DNA of 54,696 bases from a virus (Duplodnaviria > Caudoviricetes): IMG/VR virus record IMGVR_UViG_3300049432_000174, positions 1 through 54,696 of that record, one strand, 5' to 3'. The position numbers and the translations under genes are program-made. Shown piece by piece: positions 11,985 to 39,765 of this stretch (position 1 is the stretch's first letter; the number at the start of each line of letters is the position of its first letter). The notes beneath the pieces are model-generated. The model worked only from the letters and a program-made list of their open reading frames with translations, had not been told where the DNA came from and ran no database searches.

Positions 11985-14450
11985 TCACCCGAGTGCCTCA
12001 CTGGGGCCCACGTCGTCGATGGGGACGACGTCGAAGAGGGTGGGGACCTCACCGTCGGATTCGGCGGTGGTGAGGAACCGGCGGGCGGTGTCGAAGTAGG
12101 AGCGTTTCAGTTCGATGCCGTAGAACCGGCGTCCCCAGCGCAGGGACTCGACGCCTTCGGAGCCGATCCCGGCGAAGGGGGAGAACACGGTTTCGTCGCG
12201 GTTGGTCCACAGCCGGACGCACCGTTCGATCAGGCCGAGCTGGAGGGGGCAGATGTGACGCTCGTCGTCGTGTTCTTTGCCGAGCGCGGCGTTGAGGACA
12301 TCGGTGGCGCGGATGTCGTACCAGATGTGGTGCGCCCAGGAGATCCACTCGACATTGGAGATGTCGTCGGCGTGGACCTTCGCCGCCGCCTCGCCGGGCT
12401 TGCGGAAGATCAGCAGGCACTCGGACGCCTGCGGGTGCGAATCCAGCGCGTTGCGTTTCAGGGTGACGAAGAGGAGGTTGGCGTCTTTGGTGCGGGTCGC
12501 CTGGACCTGCGGGTCTTTGTCGATGGCGATGCGGGCGTGGTAGCGGAACCCGGCCCGTTCCATCCCGGCCCGGAGGTCGGACGGGTAGTCGTAGGTGTGG
12601 CGGTAGCCGTGGGCCCCGGCGAAGCGGATGACATCCATGCAGTGGACCGCCACGACACGCCCGGCCTTCATGATCCGGAACAGTTCGGGGGCGAAGAATT
12701 CCCATTGGAGGCGGTACTCGTCGTCGGAGCGGACGTTGCCCATGTCGGCCGCTTCGCTCGAGTAGGTGAACAGGTTGGCGAACGGGGGGGAGAACACGGC
12801 GAGGTCCATCGACTCGGCCGCCATGGTCGGCATGTGAGCCACGGCGTCCCCCAGGACGAGGGTCCAACGGTCGGTGCCGTCCCGGTCGAGCTCGACCTGC
12901 GGCTCGGTCATCAACGACTTCCTCTCGGTCGAATCCCGGGGGCGGAGCACCTCGATGTACGCCTGTTCCTGGCGGCCGGCGTCGGCTTCCCAGGTGGCCT
13001 GCTTGGCCAGCACGTTGCGGAGCATCGGCTCGTCGAGTTCGGTCAGCGGGACGTAGACGATCACCGGGCGGGTCTGGCCGTAGCGGTGCGACCGTCGGAT
13101 CGCCTGGTAGAACCGCTCGAACGAATCCGACATTGAGCTGAAGATCTGGATCCGGCAGGCCTGCAGGTTGAGGCCGTGGCCGAGCATGCTGGCCTTGCAG
13201 ATCAGGACCCGGGGCCCGTCACCGGCCCGGCGGAAGGCGTCGATCAGATCGGTGCGGCGCGCCTGCGGGGTCTTCCCCGAGATGACGACGGCGTCGGGGA
13301 TGAGCCGGCCGAGCTGGGTGCCTTCCTCGTCGAACGTGACCCACACGATGACCTGCTCGTCGCCATGGTCGCCGTTGACCAGGCCGGCGATGTCGGCCGG
13401 CTTGCGGGCCGGGAACCGGCGGATCTCCGTGCCGTCGAGTTCGAAGCCGTGGGCGATCTGCATGACCTTGGTGCGCGACGTGATCCCGCCGGGGGTGGCG
13501 CCGAGCAGGGACGGCTGGTCGCCCCGTTCCCACCGCCGGGCCGCGGCCCGCTGGGCGTCGGTCAGGTCGACGCGGGGGTAGCGCATCTCCAGCTTCGGGA
13601 GCGCCTGGCGGTTGTCGGCGAAGTGGTAGGCGGCCGGGCTGCGCATGAACACCGACCACGAGGCGAGGTGGCGGTAGAAGGCCTTCTCGCCGTGGTGTTT
13701 CAGCTGCCAGTTCCCGTCTCGGTTGACGAAGAACATGGCCAGGAACTCGCGGGTGGAACGCACCACTTCGAGGAAGTAGGCGTGCTCGGCGTACTCGAGG
13801 CGGTCGTTCGGGGCGGGAGTGGCTGAGCAGCACAGCTTCCACCGCACCCCCCGGAAGGCGTTGACGAGGCTGGTGCGGCGCACCCCCATGCTGGCCTTGA
13901 GGACCGAGCTCTCGTCGATCACGACCGCCGAGACGGCCAGCGTGTCGGTCGTCCCGTCGATCTTCTCGTAGTTGGTGATCCCGATCCCGGGGCCGTCGTC
14001 GAGCCACGCCTTCAGAGCGGCGCGGTCGCGCAGGTCGGCGATGGGGAGGGTGTCGCCGTAGAAGCGGGCCGCCTCGCCGATGGTCTGGGGGACGACCTGG
14101 AGGGGGGCGAGGATCAGGGTGCGGCCACCGTGGGCTTCGCCGGCGAGACGGGCCCAGTCCAGCTGGATCGGCGTTTTCCCCAGCCCGCAGTCGGCGAACA
14201 CCGCGAATCGTTCCTTGCGGAGAGCGGCTTCGACGACCCACTTCTGGTAGTCGAACAGGTAGCCGGCCGGTTCCCCGTAGGTCGCGGCGGCCAGTTCGGG
14301 GGCCAGGCCGGCGGAGGCGAGATGCTCGGCGGTCGTCTCGATCACCCGGGGGCCGACGAACCGCCACTCGGGCAGCGCCCGGACCTTCAGCAGATCGGGA
14401 TACGCCTCAAGCGTGACAGCGGCCACGTCCCCGCGACGTTCAATCCTCAC
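11985..14450 (-). CDS. SNF2-like helicase fused to an amino (N4-C/N6-A) DNA methyltransferase
   Basis: FADCGLGKT, IDESS, SATPAPND and helicase C motifs, then FSPPF and FSPFAGIGS; likely GTG start at 14450. Confidence 0.88.
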   Translation of the reverse strand: MRIERRGDVAAVTLEAYPDLLKVRALPEWRFVGPRVIETTAEHLASAGLAPELAAATYGEPAGYLFDYQKWVVEAALRKERFAVFADCGLGKTPIQLDWARLAGEAHGGRTLILAPLQVVPQTIGEAARFYGDTLPIADLRDRAALKAWLDDGPGIGITNYEKIDGTTDTLAVSAVVIDESSVLKASMGVRRTSLVNAFRGVRWKLCCSATPAPNDRLEYAEHAYFLEVVRSTREFLAMFFVNRDGNWQLKHHGEKAFYRHLASWSVFMRSPAAYHFADNRQALPKLEMRYPRVDLTDAQRAAARRWERGDQPSLLGATPGGITSRTKVMQIAHGFELDGTEIRRFPARKPADIAGLVNGDHGDEQVIVWVTFDEEGTQLGRLIPDAVVISGKTPQARRTDLIDAFRRAGDGPRVLICKASMLGHGLNLQACRIQIFSSMSDSFERFYQAIRRSHRYGQTRPVIVYVPLTELDEPMLRNVLAKQATWEADAGRQEQAYIEVLRPRDSTERKSLMTEPQVELDRDGTDRWTLVLGDAVAHMPTMAAESMDLAVFSPPFANLFTYSSEAADMGNVRSDDEYRLQWEFFAPELFRIMKAGRVVAVHCMDVIRFAGAHGYRHTYDYPSDLRAGMERAGFRYHARIAIDKDPQVQATRTKDANLLFVTLKRNALDSHPQASECLLIFRKPGEAAAKVHADDISNVEWISWAHHIWYDIRATDVLNAALGKEHDDERHICPLQLGLIERCVRLWTNRDETVFSPFAGIGSEGVESLRWGRRFYGIELKRSYFDTARRFLTTAESDGEVPTLFDVVPIDDVGPSEALG

Positions 14451-14592
14451 GACTCCTCGGCTCCGCCTGCAGCGCCGGCGCAGAGGTGGACCCCACCAAC
14501 GGTCATGTCGTCGTGGACGTCGTACCAGTGGTCCTCGCCGGGAAGCACGAGGCGGCGGCACCGAGGGCAGGGCATGGGCTCGGTGAGGCGGA

Positions 14593-14847
14593 TCACGCCG
14601 CCTGCCCGTCGTCGTCGCCGTCGTCAACGAGCTCGGCGAGTTCCCGCATGCGGATCCCGAGCACCCGGGACAGCGCTACCAGGGCCTTCAGGGTCGGGAT
14701 GGCCTCTCCCCGTTCCCAGGCGGAAACGGTGGGCTGGGTTACGCCGAGCTCGGCCGCCAGCATCTCCTGGCTGGAGTACCCCTCCTCGATCCGGCGGGCC
14801 CGGATGAGTTCCCCAAGCCGAGTCGAGATGAGTCTCTCCTGCGCCAT
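14593..14847 (-). CDS. XRE-family HTH regulator (Cro-like)
   Basis: SQEMLAAELGVTQPTVSAWERGEAIP; first gene of early operon. Confidence 0.88.
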   Translation of the reverse strand: MAQERLISTRLGELIRARRIEEGYSSQEMLAAELGVTQPTVSAWERGEAIPTLKALVALSRVLGIRMRELAELVDDGDDDGQAA

Positions 14848-14918
14848 TGGCGTAGTTTTACGCCATCGACGTAGGTGGGTCAAGCGTCTGAGTCGTACTG
14901 AATAGGCATGCCTATAGT
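14848..14918. promoter_or_regulatory. Divergent lysis/lysogeny control region with palindromes
   Basis: TGGCGTA-N4-TACGCCA (14848-14865), ATAGGCATGCCTAT (14902-14915), minus-strand TTGACC, plus-strand TATAGT 7 nt before ATG 14926. Confidence 0.6.
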
Positions 14919-14925
14919 CACGCTG

Positions 14926-15324
14926 ATGCCGCTGGAGCCGATTGCCGACCTCGACACGTTCAGAGCAGCTCTACGGCAGGCACTCGATGCCCGCACGAAG
15001 AACCTTGACGTCATCGCCGCCGCGGCCGGCTTCGAGAGCGCCGGGAGCGTCACCGATTGGGCTGGTGGCCGGGTGAAGTCCTTCGACCCAGCGAAGGTAT
15101 TTGCCCTAGAAAAAGCCCTCGGCTGCCACCCGGGCGAGCTGTCCACGCACCTGGGCTATCTGCCCCTGAGCGCCGCCGGGACCGTCGAGGCGGCGATTAT
15201 CCGTAGCGGGGACCTCGATCCCCAGGACCGGGCCTACCTCCTCAAGCTCTACCGGGACCTCCGCCGTCAGCACGAACGCTCCCAGGGGTCGCCGGCCCGC
15301 TCGGCAGACAATTCGGTGGCATAA
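14926..15324 (+). CDS. Putative immunity repressor (HTH)
   Basis: Divergent from cro; IAAAAGFESAGSVTDWAGG..VFALEKALG..LSTHLGYLP; alternative start 14908. Confidence 0.7.
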   Translation: MPLEPIADLDTFRAALRQALDARTKNLDVIAAAAGFESAGSVTDWAGGRVKSFDPAKVFALEKALGCHPGELSTHLGYLPLSAAGTVEAAIIRSGDLDPQDRAYLLKLYRDLRRQHERSQGSPARSADNSVA

Positions 15325-15329
15325 AGGAC

Positions 15330-16769
15330 TCAGCCGAGGGGGATGACGTCCCCTTCGGGTGCGCCGAGCTCGTCGCCCCAGGCGTCGTCGAGGGTGTCGG
15401 CCAGGCCGTCGTCGTCGCCGGGGATGCAGTGCTCGTACCGCTGATGGAGCATGGTCGTCGAGGTCCCGAAGCGCTTGGCCACGCCGGCGGGGTCCTTCCC
15501 CTTCCGGAGCAGGGTGGAGATCCCGTAGTGCCTCATGTCGTACAACCTCATGTCCTCGGGGACCGGGATCCCGGCGGCGACCGCCTTCTCGACGATGCGG
15601 CTGAAGGCCTGGGATGGGCCGTCGGGGTCGACGGGCTTGAGGCAGTCGGGGGCGGTGGCGAACATGTAGGAGCGGCGGGTGAGCTTCTTCCCGAACATCA
15701 GGGCCAGCTCGTCCTGGGCGCGGAGGTGGTCGTTGACGGCGGCCAGGGCCCGGGCGCCGAGCTTGATGACCCGCCGCCGGCGCTTGTCGGTCTCGCCCCG
15801 GCAGACCTTCCCGTCGACGACGCCGACTCCCTCGAGGGCGAGGCGGCCGGTGGTCCGGTCGAGCTGGCCCCGCTGGAGGGCGGCGACTTCCTGGGGGCGG
15901 GGCCCCGACGCCACGAGCAGGGCGAAGGCCAGGAGCTGCCGCCCGGCCCGGTCGGCAGCCTCACGGTCGACCCGAGCGGGGATGGTGAAGGTGTACGGGG
16001 TGCCGTCCTTGCGTTTGCGGGTGACGGTGTGGGCGGCCCGGACCCGGGTGGTCCCGAGGAGGAACGGGAGGAAGACCTCGAGCTCGTCCGGTTCGGGGGT
16101 GGTCGATTCGCGATCCTCGACGCCGGGGAGCCGGACGGTCGCGCAGGGGTTGGCCGTGAGCGTCGATCCCGGCCGGCGGATCTCCTGGTCGAAGGCCTGG
16201 GCCAGATAGCGCTTCGTCTTCCCGACGGTCCCCGGGTCGAGCGGCTGGCCCTTGTTCTTCCGGGTCTTGCCGCTGCCGACGCTGCCGCTGGCCAGGAGCC
16301 CGTCGAAGAAGGCGGCCAGGGAGAACAGGTCGGGGTCAATGGCGGCCTCTTCGGGCCCGACGGTGCCCCGAACCCGCCAGGCGGCCACGTCGGCCAGCTT
16401 GGGGAGGAGGTACGAGTCGAGGTGGGTGCGGGCCGTGCTGGCGGAGGCGAGGTGGCGGGCGTGGGCTTCGTACCACGCCTCGAGGATGGCCCCGACGGTC
16501 CGCTCCCCCTGGCTGGCCACGACGGGCGGGGCGTGGCCGCCTTCCTTGCGGCGGCGCTTCCTCGTGGCGGCGAGGTCATCGGCCCGGCCGACGAGGGTGG
16601 TGAGAGCGACGATGATCTGCTTCTCGGTGGCGTCGACGGCCAGGGTGTCGGAGAGGTAGTCAGCGCGACCGGTGACCGGGTTGACCCCGGCGTAGGCCCG
16701 CAGCTCGAGCCGGTTCCCTTTGGGGCGGACGTGGCCCCGCTGCTGACGGACCTTGTCGGTAATGTTCAT
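15330..16769 (-). CDS. int: Tyrosine integrase
   Basis: SGPRPQEV (R), RLYDMRH, RYEH (catalytic Y); adjacent to attP. Confidence 0.9.
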   Translation of the reverse strand: MNITDKVRQQRGHVRPKGNRLELRAYAGVNPVTGRADYLSDTLAVDATEKQIIVALTTLVGRADDLAATRKRRRKEGGHAPPVVASQGERTVGAILEAWYEAHARHLASASTARTHLDSYLLPKLADVAAWRVRGTVGPEEAAIDPDLFSLAAFFDGLLASGSVGSGKTRKNKGQPLDPGTVGKTKRYLAQAFDQEIRRPGSTLTANPCATVRLPGVEDRESTTPEPDELEVFLPFLLGTTRVRAAHTVTRKRKDGTPYTFTIPARVDREAADRAGRQLLAFALLVASGPRPQEVAALQRGQLDRTTGRLALEGVGVVDGKVCRGETDKRRRRVIKLGARALAAVNDHLRAQDELALMFGKKLTRRSYMFATAPDCLKPVDPDGPSQAFSRIVEKAVAAGIPVPEDMRLYDMRHYGISTLLRKGKDPAGVAKRFGTSTTMLHQRYEHCIPGDDDGLADTLDDAWGDELGAPEGDVIPLG

Positions 16770-16893
16770 GTCGTCGCTGCCTCCACATCAGGTGGTGACC
16801 GTGCCCCGGGGCGGTCGCTCGTCGCCGGGGTCTTTCGCGGGTCACTATCCACCCTCCCGCCGACTGACGCAAGCAATCGTCGGTCCCAGACCC

Positions 16894-16914
16894 ATGGGAA
16901 AACGATGGGAAAAC
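16894..16914. repeat. Integrase arm-type sites, left
   Basis: Tandem ATGGGAAAAC x2. Confidence 0.6.
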
Positions 16915-16932
16915 GCCCTCTAGGCATGAAGA

Positions 16933-16967
16933 AGGGGCACCTCCCGAACCTCCGGAAAGTGCCCCTG
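16933..16967 (-). terminator. Hairpin downstream of the tRNA fragment
   Basis: AGGGGCAC...GTGCCCCT inverted repeat. Confidence 0.55.
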
Positions 16968-16982
16968 ACCTGCATCGGAACC

Positions 16983-17028
16983 GGTGGGCGATACTGGGAT
17001 CGAACCAGTGGCTTCTGCCGTGTGAAGG
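16983..17028 (-). mobile_element. attP common core = 3' half of tRNA-Val(CAC)
   Basis: CCTTCACACGGCAGAAGCCACTGGTTCGATCCCAGTATCGCCCACC contains anticodon loop, T-arm and acceptor 3' strand; 5' half absent. Confidence 0.88.
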
Positions 17029-17140
17029 ATTCACCAGGGGTGCGAGGTAGCGCAGCGTGATGCACCAAACCCCGTCCGACCTGCGGCGATGTTTTTCTTG
17101 GGGTTGACTGCGCTGCGCTGCGTCACGCTGCGCAAGGGCA

Positions 17141-17164
17141 AAACCATGGGTCAAACCATGGGTC
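17141..17164. repeat. Integrase arm-type sites, right
   Basis: Tandem AAACCATGGGTC x2 sharing the ATGGG core with the left arm. Confidence 0.6.
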
Positions 17165-17246
17165 AACCGCCCCCCGCCCCGTTCGTCCGGGAGTGGTCAC
17201 GATGAGCCATATCTATCCGGGTGGCGACTAGCGCACGGTGGGGTCT

Positions 17247-17741
17247 ATGGACGCGCCCGCCACTCCCCCGCCCGACCACCTGACCCACCGTCAACTCATG
17301 GCCCTCGCCAAAGCCAGCCGGCCCTGGTACGCGGAGAAGCGGTTCTGGGCGCTCGGCCTCGTCGCCTTCTTCGTCACGATGACGGCGCTCGGGGCATCGA
17401 AGACTCCCGCATCGTCGGAGAACGTCGGGGGGGTGAGGACGCTCTCGGTGAACGGGGCCAACCCTCCGCAGGCTGACGTCACGCTGACATCGTGTTCCAT
17501 CGGCGAGTACGGCCTGCCCTCGGTCAAGATTCTGATCACGAACCGCAGCTCGGGGCGGTCGAACTACATCGTGAGCGTGAACCTTCTCGACGCCGCTGGC
17601 ACCAAGATCGGCGAGGGGTTCGCTTCCTCCAACAACGTCGAGGCCGGCCAGTCAGCGGTCGATGATGTCGCTGCCATGGTGAGCGCTGGGACGCTCGCCC
17701 GCTGTGTCGTGACCGAGGTCAACCGGTTCGCATCCCGCTGA
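17247..17741 (+). CDS. Membrane-anchored FxLYD-like beta-sandwich protein (moron)
   Basis: PWYAEKRFW plus TM helix; ITNRSSGRSNYIVSVNLLDAAGTKIG. Confidence 0.7.
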   Translation: MDAPATPPPDHLTHRQLMALAKASRPWYAEKRFWALGLVAFFVTMTALGASKTPASSENVGGVRTLSVNGANPPQADVTLTSCSIGEYGLPSVKILITNRSSGRSNYIVSVNLLDAAGTKIGEGFASSNNVEAGQSAVDDVAAMVSAGTLARCVVTEVNRFASR

Positions 17742-17769
17742 GGAAGACCGGCCGCGGTCGTTCATGCCG

Positions 17770-17856
17770 TCAGCGGCGGAAGAGCACCCAGAACACGAAG
17801 ATGAGGAAGCAGACGAAGAGGAACCCGCCTCCGAGCACGATCGTCTCGCCGAGCAT
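17770..17856 (-). CDS. 28-aa single-TM peptide coupled to pup
   Basis: MLGETIVLGGGFLFVCFLIFVFWVLFRR; TGATG overlap with the pup stop. Confidence 0.5.
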   Translation of the reverse strand: MLGETIVLGGGFLFVCFLIFVFWVLFRR

Positions 17857-18110
17857 CACTGGCCGCCTTTCTGAACCCAGTCCCGCATGAACTCCTCGGC
17901 GAAGACGACGTTCTCCCCGAGCGCTTCGTCGATGCTGTCGAGCAAGGTCTTCATGTCGTCGGTGAGTTCCTTGGCGACGGCGCCTCGTACCTTGGCGTCG
18001 GCGATGGCCCGGTCCATGGCGTCTTCGACGAGCTCGTCGATTTCGGCGGCGTGTTGTTCCTCGGCGTCGGTCCGGTTCGAGTGGTAGTGCGCCTGCTCCT
18101 GGGTGGGCAC
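17856..18110 (-). CDS. pup: Prokaryotic ubiquitin-like protein Pup homolog
   Basis: C-terminus ELTDDMKTLLDSIDEALGEN..AEEFMRDWVQKGGQ matches the Pup signature; purine-rich SD GGAAGGGGG. Confidence 0.9.
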   Translation of the reverse strand: MPTQEQAHYHSNRTDAEEQHAAEIDELVEDAMDRAIADAKVRGAVAKELTDDMKTLLDSIDEALGENVVFAEEFMRDWVQKGGQ

Positions 18111-18179
18111 GTGGCCCCCTTCCCGTTGCGGGTGCGTCCGGGTAACCGCCGGGGTCCGGGGCGGGCGCTGCTCGATGCG

Positions 18180-18353
18180 TCAGCTGGTGCGGCCGGGGCC
18201 CCAGTTGGTCCAGGCGTGGGCGCCGGCGAGAGCGGCGAGCCCGGCGGCGATGACGCGGTGGACCTGTTCGGGGTCGTGCATCGACGAGGCGAAGACGGCC
18301 ACGCCGAGGAAGCAGACGACGGCGACGATGAGGAGGACCAGGCCGCCGTTCAC
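18180..18353 (-). CDS. Small two-TM membrane protein
   Basis: Two hydrophobic helices; lysis region. Confidence 0.5.
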   Translation of the reverse strand: MNGGLVLLIVAVVCFLGVAVFASSMHDPEQVHRVIAAGLAALAGAHAWTNWGPGRTS

Positions 18354-18523
18354 GGTGCGGGGGTCGGGTCGACCGGAGCGGGAAGCACCGGGCTGTTGGT
18401 GCGGGTCATTTCGTGCACTGCGACCTCCATGATGTCGATGAGGGACTCGGTGAACTCGACGGCCCATTCCGGCCAGTCGTCGCGGGGCTGGTCCCGGAAC
18501 GCAGGCCAGAAGACAGGCGCCAT
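18350..18523 (-). CDS. Small hypothetical protein
   Basis: MAPVFWPAFRDQPRDDWPEW; fills gap with overlaps. Confidence 0.45.
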   Translation of the reverse strand: MAPVFWPAFRDQPRDDWPEWAVEFTESLIDIMEVAVHEMTRTNSPVLPAPVDPTPAP

Positions 18524-18524
18524 G

Positions 18525-18776
18525 TCAGGTGGCCACGGCCGGCACCGGTCGGCCGATCAGTTTGCGCTTCCGCCACCGCTCGATCAGGTTCTGACCGAGC
18601 GCGGCGGCGACGGTGCCCATGGTGATCATCCACGCCGTCTGGTCGGCGGTCGGATCCCAGATGTTGAAGACATGGAAGCCCTGGAGGACGAGAGCTGGGG
18701 TGAGAGCCTGCAGGCCAGTGCGGAGGACCGGGGTGGCCACCGGCCCGGCGGTGAGGATCGGCTGCTGTTCGGTCAT
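18525..18776 (-). CDS. Putative holin
   Basis: Two TM segments, basic C-terminus, lysis region. Confidence 0.65.
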
Positions 18777-19468
18777 CGGTGACCTCCTGGGAGCACCACG
18801 CCGGGTGGCCCGTTCCCCGGCGTCGTAGTCGTGGTGGCTGTCGTCGTGGTGGTGGCGTCCTGGCCGGGCGGTCCCTGGGGCCCCGCCGGGCCAGGGTCGC
18901 CTTGCGGGCCGGGTGGGCCCTGCGCCCCGTCCTTGCCGTCCTGTCCGGCCTGTCCGGCCGGACCGGAAGCGCCGGGTGTTCCAGCCCTGCCCTGGTCGCC
19001 TGCCGCACCAGGGGGCCCTGGGGGCCCGACGGCGCCCTGGGGGCCGGCCACCCCGGGTAGGCCGTTGAGGCCGGCCGGTCCCGGCGGACCGCCCGCCCCC
19101 TCGGTCGGGAGGGCCGCATCGGTGATCTGCTGTCGGATCTCGCTGATCTGGCCGAGGAGGGCCTGCTGGTCAGCGAGGGAAGCGCCGTTCGTCTGGGCGG
19201 CGGCCAGGCGCTTGGTGAGTTCGTCGACCTGGACGGAGAGCTGGCCGACCTGCTGGTTGGAGATGACGAGGGCGGCGTTGACCCGGCGGCTGGTGCCCAA
19301 TGCCTTGCCCTTGGCCCACCACAGGTAGCTCGACAGTAAGAGGAGGGCGACGAGGAGACCGACGAGGCCGGTGACCAGCCAGTCGCGTTTCCCGGCTGCG
19401 GTGGAGCGGTCCATGAGGTCGGCGACGTGTACGTCGAGCTCGTCGCTGCGGGCAGTCGGGTTCGGCAT
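18773..19468 (-). CDS. Membrane-anchored coiled-coil plus collagen-like protein
   Basis: TM helix, coiled coil, Gly-X-Y repeats, Thr run. Confidence 0.75.
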
Positions 19469-19653
19469 CAGCGCTCCCCGGGGCCGCCGCACGGACGCAG
19501 GTCGCGCCGCAGTTCTTCTCCTGCGAGCCAGAGCGCCTCGGTAGCGGGCGCCTGGATCCCCTCGTGGCGGGCTCGGCGATAGTTGAGGACCAGCGTCACG
19601 GCCACCCAGGACGTAAGTCCGCTGACGGCGCAGGCGATGAGGAAGGCAGTCAT
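19468..19653 (-). CDS. Small membrane protein
   Basis: N-terminal TM helix. Confidence 0.5.
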
Positions 19654-19961
19654 CAGCGCTCCAGGAGGTGTTGGCGCAGCGCGGTCAGTTCGGCGCTGAG
19701 CACGACGATCTCGGCTCGGCTGGCGGCCAGGTCGTCGCCGACCGTGGTGAGGGTGGTTTTCACGGCGGCCAGTTCAGCGGCCTGCGCTTTGAGGGCGGCG
19801 GTCAGGTCGTGGCGGATCGATTCGCTCGCTTCCCAGAGGACACTGGCTTCGGAGGTGCGGATCCGCCCGGATGTTTTGCGGTGGGCGGCGATGTAGGTGG
19901 CGGCCCCACCGGCGGCGGTGCCGACGATTGCTGCGATGGCGGGGAGCCAGTCGCCCGTCAC
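19653..19961 (-). CDS. TM plus coiled-coil lysis-region protein (holin-like)
   Basis: N-terminal TM helix then coiled coil, after endolysin. Confidence 0.65.
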
Positions 19962-20030
19962 GCATCGCCCGTCAGTACGTCCGACGGGCCGGCATGTCCG
20001 GCGTGGCTTTCGGCGGCGGAGATTGGCGGT

Positions 20031-20837
20031 TCACCTCGGTGCCCAGACGACGCGGCCGGCGTAGGCGATCGTGCCGAAGGCGAAGATGCCGCCGTCGCGG
20101 CCCATCAGGATGAGGCCCTTCCCGTCCACGGAGACGTCGGCGGCGACGATCGGCTGGTTGAGTGGCGTCCCTCCCACGGAGCCGAGGAACGGGGCACCGC
20201 CGAAGGCGAAGACGCCGCCGTCGGCGGTCACCTCCCAGTAGCCGCCGGTCGGGCAGCACACGATGGCGACCGGTTCGGCGTTGACGGTCGGGTTGGGGTC
20301 GTCAGCCACGTGCCCTCCTGGGAGTTTGGTGCGGACGAGCGCCATGAACGGCTTGCCCGGGAAGTTGGGGCCGGGGTCGGTGTGGTCGGTCTCGTGGAAG
20401 GCGAGGCTGACCTGGGCGTGGGTGGTGACACCGCGCTGGCCGGCCCGTAGTCCAGCGGCGTCGACGAATTCGGCGGGGAGTTTGTAGGTGGCGAGCCAGT
20501 CAGCCACGATGGTCGCCGCCCGGCCGAGCATGGCCCGGCTGTAGGGGTCGTCCCACTCGATCGGTGTCTGGCGGGCGTAGCCGGCCATCTCGAGCTGCAG
20601 TCCGTTGTGATTGGCCCTCGGCGCCGCCCAGGCCACGTCCTTGTCGAGGACGCAGCGGACCTCGGAGTCGGAATCGCAGGCCACGTGGCAGCTCGCTTTC
20701 GTGGCGGTGGTGGCGAAGTAGTTGGCCACGCCTTCGGCCGACGTGGCCGTCTCCGGTACCTCGGCATCGTGGAGGACGACGAGATCGATGATCCGGCCGT
20801 TCGTTTTGGTGAACCAGCGCGCCGGCACGATCTCCAC
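20031..20837 (-). CDS. Endolysin, N-acetylmuramoyl-L-alanine amidase (Amidase_2) with C-terminal GYW repeats
   Basis: [32 protein letters not shown]; [15 protein letters not shown]. Confidence 0.9.
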
Positions 20838-20866
20838 GGCCCGGATGCTCGCCCGCGGCTAGCGCC

Positions 20867-21655
20867 TCAGCGGTAGGCGTTGGGGCCGGGGAGGCGTGGC
20901 GCGGTGCGGCCGAGGCGGGGCGCGCCCCCGAGAGCGTCGGCCCGTTGGAACTGGCGGAGCGGCAATGGGTCGCAGGGGACCGGAATGCCGGGCAGGATGA
21001 CCTGGATCCCGAATGTGTTGAGGACGTCAGCGGAGGGGCTGCTCAGGTCGGTGAATGCCGTCGACATGAGCACGGTCGGGCTGGATCGGCAGTCCGGATG
21101 GAGCGCCACGACGGACATCGTCGGGTAGTGGGACCCGATCGAGTATTGAGCCTGCCAACCGGGCAGCGTCGGCGGCGTGGAGTAGGAGATGCCGAAGAGG
21201 CCGTAGCCTTTCGACGCCATGAAGACCAGGGCGACGTCCCCGGGCGTGATCGACGAGTCGGTGATCCCGGGGGCGGTGGCAGGAGAGAAATAGCCGCTGA
21301 CCGTGCCGACGCCAACGAGTGTGGGCGCAGCGATGAGGCCCCGGACGACGACGACAATCGCAGCAGGGATGCCGTATCCGGCGCTGCTTCCGGCGTTGTT
21401 GACGGTCCAGGAGGTGGGGTCACCGGTGTGCCACTGGCGGCACCAGAGCTGCATGGTTCCGGCGGCGTCGACGGTCTGGTCGAGGAGCGTCCACCCGGCC
21501 GGGGCCGCCCATGCCCACAGTGTGACGTTCGGCGGGAACATCTGGAAGGCGAACACCCAGTCGCCGTCGCTGGGCCCGACCGAGCCGGTAGGTGTGAGCA
21601 GGCTGGAGATGTTGACCGGGAGACCGGAGCTGAACCCGACGAGCTCGATCGTCAT
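20867..21655 (-). CDS. Minor tail protein
   Basis: APAGWT, TAPGIT, GDVALVF repeats; end of tail operon. Confidence 0.6.
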   Translation of the reverse strand: MTIELVGFSSGLPVNISSLLTPTGSVGPSDGDWVFAFQMFPPNVTLWAWAAPAGWTLLDQTVDAAGTMQLWCRQWHTGDPTSWTVNNAGSSAGYGIPAAIVVVVRGLIAAPTLVGVGTVSGYFSPATAPGITDSSITPGDVALVFMASKGYGLFGISYSTPPTLPGWQAQYSIGSHYPTMSVVALHPDCRSSPTVLMSTAFTDLSSPSADVLNTFGIQVILPGIPVPCDPLPLRQFQRADALGGAPRLGRTAPRLPGPNAYR

Positions 21656-21674
21656 CGGAGATCCGCCATCAAGG

Positions 21675-24533
21675 TCAGGTCGGCGGAGGGGTGAGCGACG
21701 GGTACAGGTTGCCGCTCACGGCACAGGTGACGGGGGCCCACAGGGCGACCCACAGCCAAGGCGGCACGAGCGAGGTGAAGTCCCAGGTGGCGGCGTCGCG
21801 CAACAGGCCGGTGACGGAGCCGCCGGCGTCTTCGGCGCCGGGTGAGTAGCCGGCGCTCTGGCCGTCCTGGCCCCAGGCGATCAACAGGCCGCGTTGGGTG
21901 AACTGGTCGGACCACCCGCCGGCGGAAGTGTCGAAGGCGAGGGGGTCGGGGACGACGGCGCTGAGGTCGGCGGGGGTGATCGGCCCGGAGAAGATCGCGG
22001 CGGCGAACGACGACGTGGGCGCGGCGGTGACGATGTGGGTGTCACCGACGGTGCCTTGTTCGGCGACGGGGATCCGGATGACGGACCACAGGCCGCCTTC
22101 GAGGATGAAGTAGGGGATGATCCCGGCGCCGGCGGGGATGTCCCACGGAGCCGCGGTGTCGGGGATGATGCGGCTGGCGCGGTGGTTCTGCGATACGCGT
22201 CGGACGGGGTCGGTGGTGGACCGGTTCCGGGTGCGGATGGCGTGGACGGTGATCAGGTCGCGGGCGTGTTCATCGACGGTGAGCGTGACGGCCCGGCCTT
22301 TGGTGTCCCACGCGATCTGGGCCTGGGCGATGTGCAACATGACGTCGCGACCTTCGTAGCCTTGCAACAGGAGGTTCATCCCGGCCCGCAGGTCGTAGCG
22401 GGACATCTCGTTGACGTCGGCGGTGAGCGTGACGGTGCCGACCACGGCAGGGGTCGAGTCGCGGGCGAGCTCGGCGCGGGCGGAGATTCCGGCGGCGACC
22501 CGGTCGACATGCTCCCCGAAGCTCTCCCACCGCTCGACCCGCAACACCGACCGGTCGAACATCGGGTTGGCGCCGACCTGGGCACCGAACGCGTCGAACA
22601 GGAACGGCTCGACGGTGGGGAGCTCGGCGACGGGTGCGACGTAGGCGCCGGTGAGATCGCCGCTGTTGGCGCCGGTGACGAACGTGGCGGCCCAGGTCTG
22701 GGCACCGACCCGGCCAGTGACCTCCAGGCCGTTGGCGGCTTGGAACGCCCGGGCGGTGTCCTGCGCCTGCCCGTCGAAGCTGGTACCGACGTTGATCTTC
22801 CAGCCGGCGTCGCGCATCGCCTGCGTCCACGTCGCCACGCTGGCGTGGACCGTGCCCAGCTTGAGGACGACGCCGGGCCACACCGGCGGCGCGACGGGCC
22901 GCAGGTTGGGGTACTTCGAGTTGCGCCACGTGTGCCCGGCGGCGTCGGTCCCTTCGCCGTAGATGACGCTCGGGCTGGTCGTCTGGTCGACGTGGAGGTT
23001 CATGGCCACCCCGGGCTGACCGACCCGGACAGTGGCGTGGACCTGCCACCGGTTCTTGAGGCGGACGTCAGGGATCCGCCCCGGCCGCTTCATCAGCGTC
23101 CACCCCTGCCATTCGCCGCTGTTGCCGGGGACCGACCCGTGGAAGACGGCGCTACCGAAGGAGAACACACCGCCGTCTTCGGCCACGACCCAGTAGCCGC
23201 CCCCGGGCGCGGCGATGATCCCCGACGCCGGTGCGTTGATCGGGTCGGGGGTGTTCCCGGCGAAGACCGCGTCGCCGTAGGCGTAGACGTGGCCGGAGTC
23301 GTCGACGAGCCAGTAGCCGAGCCCGGTGGCGGTCGCCGCCATCTCCACGATGGCGGTCGCGCCCGCCCCGCCACCTTCGTAGGACGCGTCGCCGTAGGCG
23401 TAGACGTGGCCGGTGTCGTCGACGAGCCAGTAACCGAGCCCCGTCGGGGTCCCCTCGATGTCGACGATGGCGGTCGTGCCGGCGCCGCCGCCGTGGTAGC
23501 TGGCATCCCCGAAGCCGTAGACGGCCCCCAGATCGTCGACGAGCCAGTAGCCGAGCCCCGTCGGGGTTGCGGCCATCCCGATCACCGCCGATGTCGGCGT
23601 GGCCTCCTCGCCGTGGAACAGGGCGTCACCGAAGGAGAACACCCCGCCATCCTCCGCGCACAGCCAGTAGCCGAAACCCGTCGGGGTGGTCGCCATGCCG
23701 GACACGGCGTTGTTGAGGGGCCGTCCGACCATGCTCCCGCCGTAGAACGTGCGCCCCTCGAACGCGATGACGGTGCCGTCCTCGGCGGCGACCCAGTAGC
23801 CGCCACCATCGGGGCGGGACGCGATCCCGACCACGGCGAACCCGAGCCCGGGCAGCGGCGCGACGGCCGCCTGGCCCAGCAGATCCTGCACGTACCCGTT
23901 GATGAGTTGGGTGCCGGATCCTTTCGAGGCGAGGAGCACACCGGTCGCCACCTCAGCGCAGACCCCGAGGTGCACGGTGCCCGCAGTGGAGCGACTGTTG
24001 AGCTCCGTGGCGATGAGCGTGCCGACGTCGAGAGCCGGTTGGTTCGGGTCGTCGGTGATGGCGAACCCGGGCGGTTTGATGAGCAGATCGGCGGCGTAGA
24101 TCGCGCCGAGGCAGTGGACGACCCGGCTGAAGCCGGTGGAGTCCCCCACGTTCACCTCGCGTACGAGGGCCCGTCCTTCGAAGATCGGGTTGTCATGATC
24201 AGCGGTCCCGTCCGGCCGGACGTGGTAGATGTCGACGTCGACCCCATTGCGCAACCACGACAGCGACCCGGTCCCGGGTGGCTCGAACGGGCCGATCATC
24301 CCGAAGATCAGATCGACCGTGCTGTCCCCGAACGGTTCGTTCCACGTCATCGTGCCCAGCTGGGTGTACTTGTCGCGGAAGAAGGTGACGTCCACTCCGT
24401 CGACGACGATCTGCCAGCGGCCCCACTCCTCCTCCACGCTCGAGGTGGGCACCCACCCGACCGGGAACCCGTTGGCGTCGAGGGTGGGGGCCGGGTAGAT
24501 GTCGGAGCGGCGCGTCAGGTTGACGGTCGTCAC
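21675..24533 (-). CDS. Large tail-tip protein with GYWLV repeats and a peptidoglycan-binding domain
   Basis: Six GYW(L/V)-x-DxG repeats; AFQAANGLEVTGRVGAQTW; likely GTG start 24533. Confidence 0.8.
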   Translation of the reverse strand: MTTVNLTRRSDIYPAPTLDANGFPVGWVPTSSVEEEWGRWQIVVDGVDVTFFRDKYTQLGTMTWNEPFGDSTVDLIFGMIGPFEPPGTGSLSWLRNGVDVDIYHVRPDGTADHDNPIFEGRALVREVNVGDSTGFSRVVHCLGAIYAADLLIKPPGFAITDDPNQPALDVGTLIATELNSRSTAGTVHLGVCAEVATGVLLASKGSGTQLINGYVQDLLGQAAVAPLPGLGFAVVGIASRPDGGGYWVAAEDGTVIAFEGRTFYGGSMVGRPLNNAVSGMATTPTGFGYWLCAEDGGVFSFGDALFHGEEATPTSAVIGMAATPTGLGYWLVDDLGAVYGFGDASYHGGGAGTTAIVDIEGTPTGLGYWLVDDTGHVYAYGDASYEGGGAGATAIVEMAATATGLGYWLVDDSGHVYAYGDAVFAGNTPDPINAPASGIIAAPGGGYWVVAEDGGVFSFGSAVFHGSVPGNSGEWQGWTLMKRPGRIPDVRLKNRWQVHATVRVGQPGVAMNLHVDQTTSPSVIYGEGTDAAGHTWRNSKYPNLRPVAPPVWPGVVLKLGTVHASVATWTQAMRDAGWKINVGTSFDGQAQDTARAFQAANGLEVTGRVGAQTWAATFVTGANSGDLTGAYVAPVAELPTVEPFLFDAFGAQVGANPMFDRSVLRVERWESFGEHVDRVAAGISARAELARDSTPAVVGTVTLTADVNEMSRYDLRAGMNLLLQGYEGRDVMLHIAQAQIAWDTKGRAVTLTVDEHARDLITVHAIRTRNRSTTDPVRRVSQNHRASRIIPDTAAPWDIPAGAGIIPYFILEGGLWSVIRIPVAEQGTVGDTHIVTAAPTSSFAAAIFSGPITPADLSAVVPDPLAFDTSAGGWSDQFTQRGLLIAWGQDGQSAGYSPGAEDAGGSVTGLLRDAATWDFTSLVPPWLWVALWAPVTCAVSGNLYPSLTPPPT

Positions 24534-24829
24534 GGGATCGGCCCCGTCGGGCCTGTCACCCCGGTCGGCGCTGTCGGCCCAGTGGCGGAGAAGACGGTCG
24601 GAGGGGGCACGACCGCCGGTGGGACCTGGAGGCCGACGAGGAGGCGGATGTCGACGTTGAGTCGCTGGGACCGGTCGGCGTCCCACGTCTCGAGCTCCGA
24701 CGGCGCGGAGAAGAGCAGGTTCGCGGGGAGGACGATGTCGACGTCGAGGTAACCGACGAGGTTCTGCGGCGACGCTCCGGCAGCGCCGCCGTAGGCGACC
24801 CCGCCGTAGCTACCCGAGCCGTAGGGCAT
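24530..24829 (-). CDS. Small minor tail protein
   Basis: MPYGSGSYGGVAYGG...; coupled on both sides. Confidence 0.55.
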   Translation of the reverse strand: MPYGSGSYGGVAYGGAAGASPQNLVGYLDVDIVLPANLLFSAPSELETWDADRSQRLNVDIRLLVGLQVPPAVVPPPTVFSATGPTAPTGVTGPTGPIP

Positions 24830-26032: not shown

Positions 26033-26479
26033 TTAGAACGGGCCGGCGAGGGCGGTCGGGTAGCGGTCGAACGTGACGGGGATGATCGCGGCGCGGGCGT
26101 AGACCATCTTGCGGTTGAAGCGCATCCCGTAGGACTTGCGGCGACACGACCAGGAGTACGTGGTTGATGCCACGGTCAGGTCGACCACGAATGCTTTTTG
26201 GGTGAAGGCGGCGAGGACGGCGCCGATGTTGGCTTGGACGGCGCTGTGGTCGGCGCCTCGGACCAGGATCCGCATCTGTTCGGTGACCATCCCGCGGATG
26301 TCGTGGGTGACGACGTTGCCTTCCACGAACGGGGAGGAGACGAGTTCCTGATCGTAGGAAGCGAATGCTTCGGTGATCCCGTCGTCGTCGATTTTGAAGT
26401 CGCCGGTGCCGTCGATAGCGAGCGGCCCGAGCGAGAGCGAAGCCCGGTACACAGTGACGGAGCCGGCCTGGGCGACCAT
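26033..26479 (-). CDS. Distal tail (Dit-like) protein
   Basis: Immediately downstream of tape measure gene; size. Confidence 0.55.
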   Translation of the reverse strand: MVAQAGSVTVYRASLSLGPLAIDGTGDFKIDDDGITEAFASYDQELVSSPFVEGNVVTHDIRGMVTEQMRILVRGADHSAVQANIGAVLAAFTQKAFVVDLTVASTTYSWSCRRKSYGMRFNRKMVYARAAIIPVTFDRYPTALAGPF

Positions 26480-28557
26480 CAGAGCGTGGCCACGGCGTCG
26501 CCTGAGAAGTTGGCCCGTTCACCTTCTCGGCGGAGCTGTTCGCGGAGATCGTTGAGGTCGGCCGCTTTGATCGTGACCGGCCCGAGGAGGTTCACGTTGT
26601 GCTGGTCGTTGTAGTGGGCGACGCCGGGGGTGCTGGCCATGCCGGGGGCGGGTTGGGCGGTGGCGCCGACGATGGCGGCCCACGCCGGGTCCATCCCTTT
26701 CGTGTCGATCTTCTTCGTGGGGTTGGGGTACATCTTGGCGATGTCCTCGGAGGTGATGTCGATCCCTTTGTGGAGGGTGGCGGCCCACTGGGTGAGGTCC
26801 TGTTCGCCTTGCCGGGCCGACTCGGCCATCCCTTTGAATTTGCCGCCGATGCCGGGGATTTTCTCGGCCAGCTCGAGGGTGTTGGCGATGCCTTTGGAGA
26901 ACTGGGCGAGGGCGGTGAGGATCCAGCCGATCCCGTCCATGATCCCGTTGGCGGCGGCCTGCGTGGCGATCTTCATCCCCAGGCTGACCTCGGCCCAGTT
27001 CTGGGAGATGAGGTAGATGGCGAGCCCGATCAGGACGAACTCGGCGAGTACGACACCCCACGCCGTCGCCGTCGCAAGCGCCGACGCCTCCGACGCCGTG
27101 CTCATCCCCACCATGTTGGCCACCCACCCGGTCCGCATGGTGGTCCCGTCGGCCAGTACCTGCTTCGAGAACCCGGCCAGTTTCGTGCCGAAACTGCCGA
27201 TCGACAGGATCGCCTCGCCGGTCTTCCCGACGAGGTGGGTCTGCATCAGCCCGCCGATGCCGGCCAGGGCCGGTCCGGCGGCGGTCAGCATCCCGCCGTA
27301 CTTGGCGCCCGACTCGGCGGCGAAGTTGATGATCGCCGCTTTGGCTTCGCGCATGTGACCACCGAAGGTGTCGGCCATGGCGTCGTCGACGCCGTGGACC
27401 TTCCCGGTGATCAGGTCCATCTTCCCGGCGAAATCGAGGGCACCCGCCCCCAGATCCTTCTTGGTGCCCAGCGCGGCCACGTCGGCGGCGGACGCCTTCT
27501 TCGTGGCTTCGGTGACCTCATCGTTGGCTTTGCGGAGTTCGATCGTCTGGCTGACGCTCAGCTTGGTGGTCTTCCCACCGGCGGCCTGGGCGTCATCGAG
27601 TTTCTTCGACGCCGCGGTCACCCCGTTCTGGGCGGCCTGCAACTCCAACGCTTTGGCGGCGGCGGTCTTGGTGCTCCCGGCCAGTGAGGCCTGGACCGTC
27701 TGAAGATGCTGCCCCGCCTTCGCCAGGGCGGCCTGGGCGGCGGTGACCTTCGCCAGGGCGGCGGCGTCTTTTGTGCCCCCCGAGGTGGCCAGCGAGTCCT
27801 TCTGGCGGGCCTTGACATCGGCCAGGTTCTGCTGCGCCTTCGTGAGCGCATCGTGGGCTTTGGTCTGCTCGTCGACGTTCTTCTTCGCCGCCTCACCGGC
27901 CTTGGTGCCCTCGGTGAGGTTGATACCGAACTGCTTCATGGGCCGGGTGCTGCCGGCGAAGATGCTGACGACCAGGTCCGCGGCAGCAGCCAGGCTGATG
28001 TGGCGGGCGGCGCTGATGTCGGACACCGTCCCCGCATACTTGATCGCTTCCGCGCCCGACCCGAGACCGGCAACCAGACGAGCCTGCGACTCCAGGACCT
28101 CCGCCTTCGTCTCGCCGCTGTGCTGCTCCTCCTTCACGACGACCGCCAGCCGGTCCTTGTAGTCGTCGATGCTCTCCCCGATATTTTCGTAGGACTGCTT
28201 CAGTTTGGCGTTGGCGTCCGCTTGGGGTTTGGAGGCGGCCAGGCCGATCGCGCCGATGCCGGCCGCGGCCACCCCGACACCGGTGGTGATCTTCCCGAAG
28301 CTCGTCTTCCCCTTCTCGCCCATCGTGTCGAACGCGCCGGAGATGTGACCGATGAGCCCTTGGAGTTCCCCGAACTGGCCGGGGATCCCCGACGCCGACA
28401 TGCCGGCGGCGAGTCCTTTGAACGCGCCGCCGCCCTTCGCTGGCAGCCCGGCGAGCGCCCCGGTGAACTTCCCCATCTCGCTCTGCACGTTGGCGACGGC
28501 CTTGACCGCGCCGGTGCTGTCCCCACCGAGGACCATCCGCAGGGGCCGGCCGGCCAT
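26479..28557 (-). CDS. Tail tape measure protein
   Basis: 692 aa, Ala/Gly-rich helical, TM-like segment, position. Confidence 0.85.
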   Translation of the reverse strand: MAGRPLRMVLGGDSTGAVKAVANVQSEMGKFTGALAGLPAKGGGAFKGLAAGMSASGIPGQFGELQGLIGHISGAFDTMGEKGKTSFGKITTGVGVAAAGIGAIGLAASKPQADANAKLKQSYENIGESIDDYKDRLAVVVKEEQHSGETKAEVLESQARLVAGLGSGAEAIKYAGTVSDISAARHISLAAAADLVVSIFAGSTRPMKQFGINLTEGTKAGEAAKKNVDEQTKAHDALTKAQQNLADVKARQKDSLATSGGTKDAAALAKVTAAQAALAKAGQHLQTVQASLAGSTKTAAAKALELQAAQNGVTAASKKLDDAQAAGGKTTKLSVSQTIELRKANDEVTEATKKASAADVAALGTKKDLGAGALDFAGKMDLITGKVHGVDDAMADTFGGHMREAKAAIINFAAESGAKYGGMLTAAGPALAGIGGLMQTHLVGKTGEAILSIGSFGTKLAGFSKQVLADGTTMRTGWVANMVGMSTASEASALATATAWGVVLAEFVLIGLAIYLISQNWAEVSLGMKIATQAAANGIMDGIGWILTALAQFSKGIANTLELAEKIPGIGGKFKGMAESARQGEQDLTQWAATLHKGIDITSEDIAKMYPNPTKKIDTKGMDPAWAAIVGATAQPAPGMASTPGVAHYNDQHNVNLLGPVTIKAADLNDLREQLRREGERANFSGDAVATL

Positions 28558-37977: not shown

Positions 37978-38388
37978 TTAGGTCTTCGGGTTCGGCAGCT
38001 TGGTGGTCCGCACCCGCTTCCCGACCTGCGGGGTCACCAACGGTTCCACCTCCGCCGCCTCGACCGGCGGCTCGGGGACGTCAGGGGCGGGTTCGGCGGC
38101 CACGTCGGCGGGAGGAGCGACGAGCCCGAGACGGACAGCGTCAGCCAAGGAGATCACAGTCCCTTCGCGGTGCATCAGCCGGCGGCCTCCACCGGGCGCT
38201 TCGTCGAACACGTTGTGGGGCACGATGAACGGCACCGCCTCGGCCGGGACGGCATCTCCGGCGACGAGCCCCTCAGCAACCGCAGTCGCCCAAGGGATCT
38301 CGTCACCCGCGCCGTGCAGGAGCTGCCGGTAGCCGAACTCATCCGGGGCCGAGTAGATACGCTCGGGAACCCGGAACGTCCCCTTCAT
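37978..38388 (-). CDS. Small head-associated protein with two internal repeats
   Basis: LLHGAGDEIPWATAVAEGLV / LMHREGTVISLADAVRLGLV. Confidence 0.6.
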   Translation of the reverse strand: MKGTFRVPERIYSAPDEFGYRQLLHGAGDEIPWATAVAEGLVAGDAVPAEAVPFIVPHNVFDEAPGGGRRLMHREGTVISLADAVRLGLVAPPADVAAEPAPDVPEPPVEAAEVEPLVTPQVGKRVRTTKLPNPKT

Positions 38389-39752: not shown

Positions 39753-39765
39753 GTGATGTCCCCTC

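Follow-up and report, generated by a model that had tools for sequence, protein, structure and literature searches.

A Pup homologue encoded by a phage without pupylation genes, and its counterparts in other phage genomes

INTRODUCTION

To our knowledge, pupylation is the sole ubiquitin-like degradation-tagging system of bacteria, and it has been studied almost wholly as a chromosomal stress and virulence pathway. Eukaryotic viruses are known that carry a ubiquitin gene only, such as the v-ubi gene of baculovirus, and use the conjugation and degradation enzymes of the host. The actinobacterial tag, Pup (prokaryotic ubiquitin-like protein, PF05639), is a disordered protein of ~60–80 residues, which has been solved with Mpa, PafA and Dop (PDB 3m9d, 7px9, 4bjr and 7oxy). 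Here we describe P0001, a Pup homologue encoded by the virus record IMGVR_UViG_3300049432_000174 of IMG/VR; the whole stretch of 54,696 nucleotides is called the window below. P0001 has no pupylation enzyme beside it in the record, and similar orphan Pup genes recur across many phage lineages.

A phage Pup has been annotated at least once. The siphophage Dagobah (MT711977.1, host S. coelicolor M600) has a coding sequence, HUN42_00036 (QMP84414.1), which is annotated as 'ubiquitin-like protein Pup' and follows directly after the endolysin gene. According to the covered part of its description, the Dagobah genome has a GC content of 68.9% and the phage is predicted to be temperate (PMC7650747). 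The main text of that paper, the part consulted, mentions no Pup, ubiquitin, pupylation or proteasome. The passages covered of a 2026 review on lysine deserts as pupylation evasion contain no phage Pup (PMC13696103), and the literature search found no title or abstract beginning on a phage-encoded Pup. As far as searched, the phage Pup class has apparently not been studied.

RESULTS

P0001 matches the Pup family and keeps the terminal GGQ

The preliminary description, which was made from the letters of the window alone, had reported an 84-residue open reading frame (ORF) with a terminal GGQ. The ORF lies on the minus strand exactly where it was placed (Table 1); its translation ends in LLDSIDEALGENVVFAEEFMRDWVQKGGQ, directly before the TGA stop, and the GGQ end is kept. 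The GTG codon is the earliest possible start within an open frame of 107 codons. The GC content at the three codon positions is 0.72/0.34/0.87, compared to 69% for the record, which is typical of coding DNA.

P0001 matches the Pfam Pup model (PF05639) with 47.7 bits against a cut-off of 27 (E = 3e-12), and the match covers residues 18–84 of the protein and positions 6–69 of the 69-position profile. When the whole 54.7-kb record was scanned in six frames, this model gave a single match, located at P0001 (46.3 bits, E = 3.9e-13). A phmmer search against PDB sequences returned Pup chains only; the best of them, 7px9_G (E = 2.8e-4), was aligned up to the terminal GGQ. Across 20 phage Pups nine columns never vary, and P0001 retains all of them (D61, L64, N67, F74, V79, Q80, K81, G82 and G83). 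Neither P0001 nor its relative P0003, described below, matched any PHROG family below E 0.008.

Like actinobacterial Pup, P0001 is small and, with the deviations given below, carries the L-L-D-x-I-D...L-x-E-N...A-E-x-F...V-Q-K-G-G-Q motif at its very end. Different from actinobacterial Pup, it is phage-encoded and lies away from dop, prcBA, pafA and arc; it is ~15–20 residues longer, and its N-terminal half is of high predicted helical propensity. Alignment to the solved Pup chains confirmed the three-residue insertion (VVF) that had been reported earlier, and located it after the conserved Asn, between ...EN and AE.... In the passages covered of PMC8223512, Pup bound in the PafA or Dop groove forms two short orthogonal helices, whereas Pup bound to the Mpa coiled coil forms one long helix. 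By our reading, the VVF insertion would fall at the hinge between the two short orthogonal helices. The identity of P0001 to the cellular Pup of Nonomuraea is 42% over 67 residues, and the viral copy nearest to it, L005, reaches 42.5% over 87 aligned positions. Among the 41 full-length viral Pups P0001 diverges most, with a best match of 51% over the last 57 residues.

P0001 is an orphan Pup in a phage genome

The window is a linear metagenome assembly from IMG/VR, rated 67% complete by CheckV, and its genes were mapped by PHROG scans. As described earlier, pafA, dop, mpa/arc and prcAB are missing from it: no match was found in the record for PafA/Dop (PF03136), the proteasome (PF00227) or Mpa/ARC (TIGR03689). 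Given its completeness, these absences hold for the record rather than for the whole phage. In a cellular control locus from Nonomuraea (L058), a 666-bit PF03136 gene is located directly upstream of a 106-bit Pup gene. P0001 lies outside any dop/prcBA locus, and its neighbours are lysis genes, a transmembrane peptide and an integrase. P0001 is therefore an orphan, for which the record encodes no PafA/Dop, proteasome or Mpa; by its sequence it is a genuine Pup-family protein, and its gene has been separated from the chromosomal dop-pup-prcBA locus. The control record (NZ_LT559118.1), the 11.85-Mb 'plasmid I' of Nonomuraea, looks chromosomal though filed as a plasmid; the same is true of the 33.5-kb Tsukamurella 'plasmid 20' (L074, NZ_LR134462.1), on which arc and a dop-like gene are found.

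P0001 has phage genes to either side. Terminase large subunit (TerL), portal, head, tail and endolysin genes are found at higher coordinates, and integrase, helicase-methyltransferase and RecT genes at lower ones. P0001 is the penultimate gene of a long leftward block of structural and lysis genes, located before the integrase region with the presumed phage attachment site (attP). The tail genes and collagen-like fibre genes belong to this minus-strand block, between the head genes and the endolysin. The order of endolysin, small membrane-protein ORFs and P0001 agrees with the position downstream of the lysis genes that had been noted before; judged by their position, the membrane ORFs may include the holin. 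About 470 nucleotides between the Pup side and the integrase are noncoding. Since the integrase and its noncoding neighbour are flanked by phage genes on both sides, the configuration is that of an unintegrated phage (attP), and the Pup gene is not a host flank.

A second assembler joined the same genes. One Logan contig of 5165 bp spans positions 13604–18768, from the helicase through the integrase and P0001 to the genes upstream, with 0 differences and a depth of 10–13x on both sides of P0001, which speaks against misassembled host DNA. The Logan run is probably the source sample itself, so the agreement tests the assembler rather than the biology. When the endolysin was searched by tblastn, 620 phage records matched, all of them actinobacteriophages, with a best identity of 37%. 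The portal protein is at most ~27–28% identical to any known phage portal. Megablast of positions 15000–22000 gave no match, and the integrase gave none in the plasmid collection. By its sequence, the window is the DNA of a novel soil phage of an actinobacterium, and its Pup gene is genuinely phage-borne.

Orphan Pup genes recur in phage genomes

A survey of phage contigs was carried out by degenerate DNA motif scans of IMG/VR (2.9 million contigs). Three V-Q-K-G-G-[QE]-stop patterns gave 28, 16 and 12 loci, and translation identified 13, 6 and 8 of them, respectively, as Pups (27/56). An internal motif, VLEENAEEF, which leaves the C-terminus unselected, gave 28 loci; all 28 were Pups and 14 of them were new. 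Each of these 14 new copies ends in GGQ or GGE directly before the stop codon. Because the scans demand exact peptides, the counts are lower bounds and are biased towards canonical motifs. At E ≤ 0.001, the Pfam Pup model matched 20 of 20 sequences (18 distinct IMG/VR Pups, P0001 and P0003), whereas the 14 later loci, duplicates and two end-truncated copies were called Pup by motif only.

Besides the window, 41 IMG/VR records carry a Pup gene, and none of the 41 contains a PafA/Dop match (PF03136; 0/13, 0/5, 0/9 and 0/14 in the four batches). Proteasome subunits (PF00227) were absent from all 28 records scanned for them, which are the first 27 and the window. Six of the Pup-bearing records are 100% complete by CheckV, and one of the six has direct terminal repeats. 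When the 41 full-length viral Pups (39 from IMG/VR, that of the window and that of Dagobah) were clustered at 70% identity over the last 57 residues, 18 clusters resulted. The orphan phage Pup is thus not a one-off but a recurrent class across many phage lineages. The GC content of the viral Pup contigs ranges from 0.38 to 0.71, so the hosts probably extend beyond high-GC actinobacteria. Two Pup-like clusters of the ESM Atlas list Uroviricota as their commonest phylum; with scores of 0.80, below the 0.9 needed, they serve as a lead only.

The neighbourhood of the surveyed genes was read from PHROG scans and our own crude gene calls. TerL, portal, protease and major head protein genes come after Pup in one group, and TerL, portal and major head protein genes in a second; in further groups, Pup lies beside primase/polymerase genes. 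Like the window, the 41 records carry the tag without PafA/Dop among phage genes (TerL, portal, major head protein, primase). Different from the window Pup, which comes after the lysis genes, most of these Pups are found immediately before the terminase gene or next to replication genes. Most of them are canonical in motif, 57–78 residues in length and have ordinary low-complexity N-termini. Nearly all lack an insertion, again unlike the window Pup, the exception being L047/L052 with one inserted residue.

Two groups of survey loci deserve mention in their own right. The same 65-residue Pup ends in Gln in L019 (G008) and in Glu in L054 and L055 (G026 and G027); GGQ and GGE occur here as natural alleles of a single phage lineage. 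Nine IMG/VR fragments (L062–L066, L068, L069, L071 and L073), of GC content 0.43–0.52, share a Pup that ends in VQRGGE. These fragments are 2–15% complete and probably derive from large phages, and their low GC content points to hosts other than the high-GC actinobacteria. A conserved gene of 486–490 residues starts 18–19 nucleotides after Pup in L062, L063 and L073, the three that were examined.

Dagobah carries a related Pup in a similar neighbourhood

With the Pups of L031 and L042 as queries, tblastn matched two of 50,697 GenBank phage records: Dagobah and MT835496.1, an uncultured 159-kb phage known here as a tblastn match only. P0001 (at E ≤ 0.01) and the Pup of L009 matched nothing in the same collection. 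The Dagobah Pup is close to the L042 copy (86% identity) and distant from P0001 (30%). In both Dagobah and the window, Pup is found in a high-GC actinobacteriophage and in the same post-endolysin neighbourhood. The two phages are unrelated at the DNA level, since megablast of positions 15000–22000 was empty, and the genes differ in several respects. The Dagobah Pup lacks the hinge insertion and ends in VQVGGE, and with GGE already in place it needs no deamidation, whereas the window Pup has VVF and ends in VQKGGQ. The former is followed by a soluble small ORF and primase/polymerase genes, the latter by the transmembrane peptide and the attP region.

The N-terminal half of P0001 is shared with one relative

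Among ~5.8 billion protein clusters, P0001 is represented by its own cluster and one relative only, P0003, which comes from a single 3.9-kb Logan contig. P0003 is 78 residues in length and 65% identical to P0001; it has the same ends and a more canonical motif, and it lacks the VVF insertion. Scans with N-terminal peptide patterns found no further relatives in viral, genome or metagenome contig collections. By hand count on the alignment, the two proteins are identical at 37 of 42 positions over residues 1–42, compared to 19 of 42 in the Pup-motif half. The N-terminal part of P0001 matches no family.

The middle of P0001 had been described as longer and helical-looking. An AlphaFold2 model agrees with this, since it shows one helix over residues 4–80 (mean predicted local distance difference test, pLDDT, 81.9, from a two-row alignment) and is most confident at residues 20–60. 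The ESM Atlas model, with a pLDDT of 0.63 and a predicted template modelling score of 0.27, lends the helix little support. A possible internal repeat of the LLDEID-like helix between the N- and C-terminal halves was also examined and rejected as not significant, because 320 of 2000 shuffles reach its score.

P0001 is modelled in the PafA groove

The complex of P0001 (with an alignment of our own, A2) and S. coelicolor PafA was modelled with ESMFold2, together with three controls. The docking score is 0.74 (0.74, 0.73 and 0.76 in the individual runs), compared to 0.00 for the best of the three controls. It is a mark that 58 of 80 solved complexes and 2 of 110 mismatched pairs attain; these counts are approximate, because an alignment of our own was used. 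The runs have at least 85% of their contacts in common, and the pLDDT of the partner is 65–67. In the model, PafA is contacted by Pup residues 52–84, including the neighbours of the insertion; residues 20–36 are also laid on PafA. The preliminary description had suggested structure prediction with PafA, and the model supports binding of P0001 in the PafA groove. A like complex is already solved (4bjr), so the high score may come from the model's memory of solved complexes; what the model displays is likeness, not binding by P0001.

Gene neighbourhood of P0001

The features around P0001 are listed in Table 1. The small ORF behind P0001 has a GC content of 0.93 at third codon positions (GC3), all residues of its best 18-residue window are hydrophobic (18/18), and it matches no Pfam family. 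Coupling of Pup to this transmembrane peptide had been proposed. A hydrophobic ORF does overlap the Pup stop, but a comparably hydrophobic downstream ORF is absent at all 26 other phage Pup loci examined, so the coupling is peculiar to this window. Moreover, a frame ending in ...AG TGA automatically yields GTG over the stop, which makes the overlap alone weak evidence of coupling.

No sigma-70-like promoter was found around the Pup gene, with 0.2 expected, and the three terminator-like matches there are all on the opposite strand. The 69-nucleotide gap 5′ of Pup and the gap after the transmembrane peptide fold no better than shuffled sequences (z = +1.04 and −0.21, respectively). Among the listed sequencing runs that hold positions 16500–19500 there is no RNA run; the single run there is a DNA run and probably the source sample.

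Proximity of Pup to attP had been noted as well, and is plausible but not proven. The integrase is close by, and the stretch between it and Pup contains a segment that resembles the 3′-half of a tRNA (T-arm and acceptor), a candidate attP core. Summed contig depth over this segment reaches 65x and 21x, compared to 10–13x in its flanks. On the other side, ARAGORN found 0 tRNA genes and Rfam gave no tRNA match in the segment, and an exact 36-nucleotide search with the candidate core gave 0 matches in 185,579 species genomes. The membrane-anchored ORF that converges on the Pup genes from the plus strand, for which no Pfam or PHROG family was found, is a candidate moron expressed in lysogeny.

Table 1. 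Positions of P0001 and of the features discussed with it in the window
Feature	Position	Strand	Basis or remark
Pup homologue P0001, 84 residues	17856..18110	minus	GTG start; C-terminal VQKGGQ, then TGA
Putative Shine–Dalgarno-like site GGGAAGGGGG	18115..18124	minus	4 nucleotides 5′ of the P0001 GTG; read from the sequence
Hydrophobic ORF resembling a single transmembrane peptide, 29 codons (28 residues from ATG)	17770..17859	minus	overlaps the Pup stop (GTGATG)
Membrane-anchored ORF, 167 residues	17238..17741	plus	converges on the Pup operon; GC3 0.86
tRNA 3′-half-like segment (T-arm and acceptor), candidate attP core	16985..17030 (approx.)	minus	reading of the sequence
Tyrosine integrase	15330-16769	minus	phrog_1, E 1.8e-22
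Helicase-methyltransferase	11985-14627		PHROG scan
RecT	6346-7155		PHROG scan
Run of small membrane-protein ORFs between endolysin and Pup (holin-like region)	18180..19961	minus	translations; weak family matches only
Endolysin, amidase type	20031-20837	minus	phrog_12609, E 1.2e-38
Major head protein	38388-40109	minus	PHROG scan
Portal	41091-42467	minus	PHROG scan
TerL	43234-45897	minus	PHROG scan

Other features of the window

Several further features of the window were recorded. In the lysis region, a 239-residue protein (18773-19492, minus strand) has an N-terminal transmembrane segment, Gly-X-Y collagen-like repeats and a poly-Thr stretch, and matches tail-fibre PHROGs in its collagen part only. 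Over the N-terminal region of the endolysin (20014-20347), summed contig depth rises up to 99x, with several joints and loose ends; this domain is probably common to other phages or bacteria of the same sample. Within the tail block, a gene on the opposite strand (30600-32327, plus) encodes a 575-residue protein that resembles beta-1,4-glycosyltransferases (phrog_13126, E 4.6e-66, category moron/host takeover). The TerL ORF is 887 residues in length, and its TerL match covers residues ~434–866; residues ~90–340 match P-loop, primase or DnaC-like PHROGs, and a fusion, an insertion or a too-early start is possible.

Beyond the terminase, a second tyrosine-recombinase-like gene is present. Its catalytic half (phrog_216, E 6.7e-21) is encoded by a 157-residue ORF (49118-49591, minus); the adjacent ORF (49588-50130, minus) is in another frame, and the recombinase gene may be split. 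An excisionase- or helix-turn-helix-like ORF lies at 46632-47096 (minus), and the GC content falls to 0.62–0.65 at both ends of the window. The phage may end here, or the region may be a second mobile element.

Lysine makes up 2.8% and arginine 7.2% of the residues in the 16 larger ORFs. The lysine content is 0.4–1.0% in six of these proteins, including the portal and a 1003-residue tail-region protein with a lysin-like domain (21675-24686), and 7.8% in the 692-residue ORF at 26479-28557; as the host provides no baseline for lysine content, these values permit no conclusion on lysine deserts.

DISCUSSION

What P0001 does for the phage can be read in several ways, and the reading we favour, at about an even chance of being right, is that phage Pup serves as a conjugatable tag, by which host pupylation is boosted or reshaped. 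It is favoured because the GG[QE]-stop end is conserved where it was not selected for, and because most viral copies are canonical and full-length. In this proposal, Pup would be expressed from the leftward structural and lysis block in an actinobacterial host and would enter the host pupylation pathway. Host Dop would deamidate its terminal Gln, host PafA would ligate it to lysines of host proteins, and perhaps of phage proteins too, and host Mpa/ARC would read the tag. In this way, a phage that brings no enzymes of its own could raise or reshape both pupylation and turnover by the proteasome, in infection or in lysogeny. The gain could lie in amino acids released by the turnover of host proteins, in the removal of host factors or in the shielding of phage proteins.

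Several observations weigh against a function as conjugatable tag. The preliminary description had suggested that the phage tag would saturate, block or redirect the Pup-proteasome system of the host. We know of no specificity factor for PafA, and a phage tag alone could therefore not obviously 'redirect' pupylation. P0001 scores 37.5 bits with the NCBIfam equivalog-domain model TIGR03687 (pupylate_cterm; E = 1.8e-9, residues 50–84), below the cut-off of 41.45; thus, of the two Pup models searched, as the preliminary description had suggested, the Pfam one was passed and the NCBIfam one missed. The shortfall coincides with the VVF insertion and the motif substitutions. Two of six nearly invariant positions deviate in P0001 (G65 for E and M75 for V), and either these substitutions or the insertion at the putative hinge could impair ligation. 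Finally, the comparison of P0001 with P0003 hints that the N-terminal half is better conserved than the motif half, which is unlike what a plain tag would predict.

Some of these features would suit a decoy or inhibitor, which would bind Mpa/ARC, Dop and/or PafA but serve as a poor substrate. It would titrate the machinery, and in this way shield lysine-bearing phage proteins from pupylation and degradation by the proteasome, or freeze host proteostasis. Besides the hinge insertion and the two substitutions, the rank of P0001 as the most divergent full-length viral Pup is in its favour. So is the conserved N-terminal half, which is modelled as helical, whereas Mpa, as Striebel is said to have shown in 2010, engages a disordered Pup N-terminus. 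Free Pup-GGQ binds Mpa without being degraded, as stated in the covered part of PMC3769308, and the passages covered of the 2026 review deem pupylation of phage proteins a plausible selective pressure and cite the lysine deserts of Mycobacterium phages (PMC13696103). However, most other phage Pups are canonical in motif and length and have ordinary N-termini, and a pure blocker would have no need of an exact GG[QE]-stop, which all 14 terminus-unselected copies keep. The PafA model also puts the C-terminus as deep as expected for a substrate. On balance we consider a decoy rather doubtful. Alternatively, P0001 may be a targeting adaptor, the N-terminal helix of which binds a host protein, for example a defence factor, while the Pup half delivers it to PafA/Mpa. 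The strong identity of residues 1–42 between P0001 and P0003, the confidence of the AlphaFold2 model at residues 20–60 and the placement of residues 20–36 on PafA in the docking model would all fit. The contrast between the halves, however, comes from two sequences only and could stem from recombination instead of selection; the N-terminal part has neither a family match nor a known partner, and the internal repeat is not significant. An adaptor is therefore improbable in our view, but if it were true, an unspecific pupylation system would gain a target chosen by the phage.

Two further explanations deny Pup a role in the phage. The gene could be a passenger, a host pup that was picked up by accident beside the attachment site and has drifted since; the attP side is where imprecise excision leaves host DNA, and P0001 is divergent and under the NCBIfam cut-off. 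Against such drift, the frame is intact, with a GC3 of 0.87 and a putative Shine–Dalgarno-like site, and all invariant motif positions are kept at an identity to cellular Pup of 42%. P0003, at 65% identity, has the same ends; cellular pup is flanked by dop, of which the record holds no remnant; and Pup occurs in 18 sequence clusters of viral records at varied genome positions. Capture by chance thus strikes us as quite improbable. An artefact, by misassembly, contaminating host DNA or a chance ORF, would be suspected from a metagenome assembly that is 67% complete and from a region held by one run, probably its own source sample. It is extremely improbable in the face of the even-depth contig of the second assembler, which joins the helicase to the integrase, Pup and the genes upstream without a single difference, the phage genes on both sides and the Pfam E-value of 3e-12.

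Returning to the conjugatable tag as the reading we prefer for phage Pups in general, we propose, more tentatively, that orphan Pups could form a widespread and so far unrecognised class of host-takeover or counter-defence proteins, by which phages could tap or jam the Pup-proteasome system of Pup-bearing hosts. The sub-lineage of the window may have gone beyond a plain tag and become a specialised effector, either a blocker of Mpa/PafA/Dop that would protect the proteins of the phage or an adaptor that would direct a chosen host protein to the proteasome. The idea of a specialised effector comes from the combination of the hinge insertion, the conserved and putatively helical N-terminal half and the coupled membrane peptide.

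The question is testable, as Dagobah can be cultured on S. coelicolor. The divergent P0001 is a natural variant for probing the tolerance of PafA, Dop and Mpa, and natural Pup variants may find use in Pup-based proximity tagging. The finding bears on the hypothesis, raised in the covered passages of PMC13696103, that host pupylation shapes actinobacteriophage proteins through lysine deserts. A Pup tag in at least 18 phage clusters without the enzymes implies that phages may manipulate pupylation, and would be the bacterial counterpart of viral ubiquitin. With v-ubi, a beta-grasp protein that works through an E1-E2-E3 cascade, and phage Pup, a disordered protein with a single ligase, this would be an analogy and not a homology.

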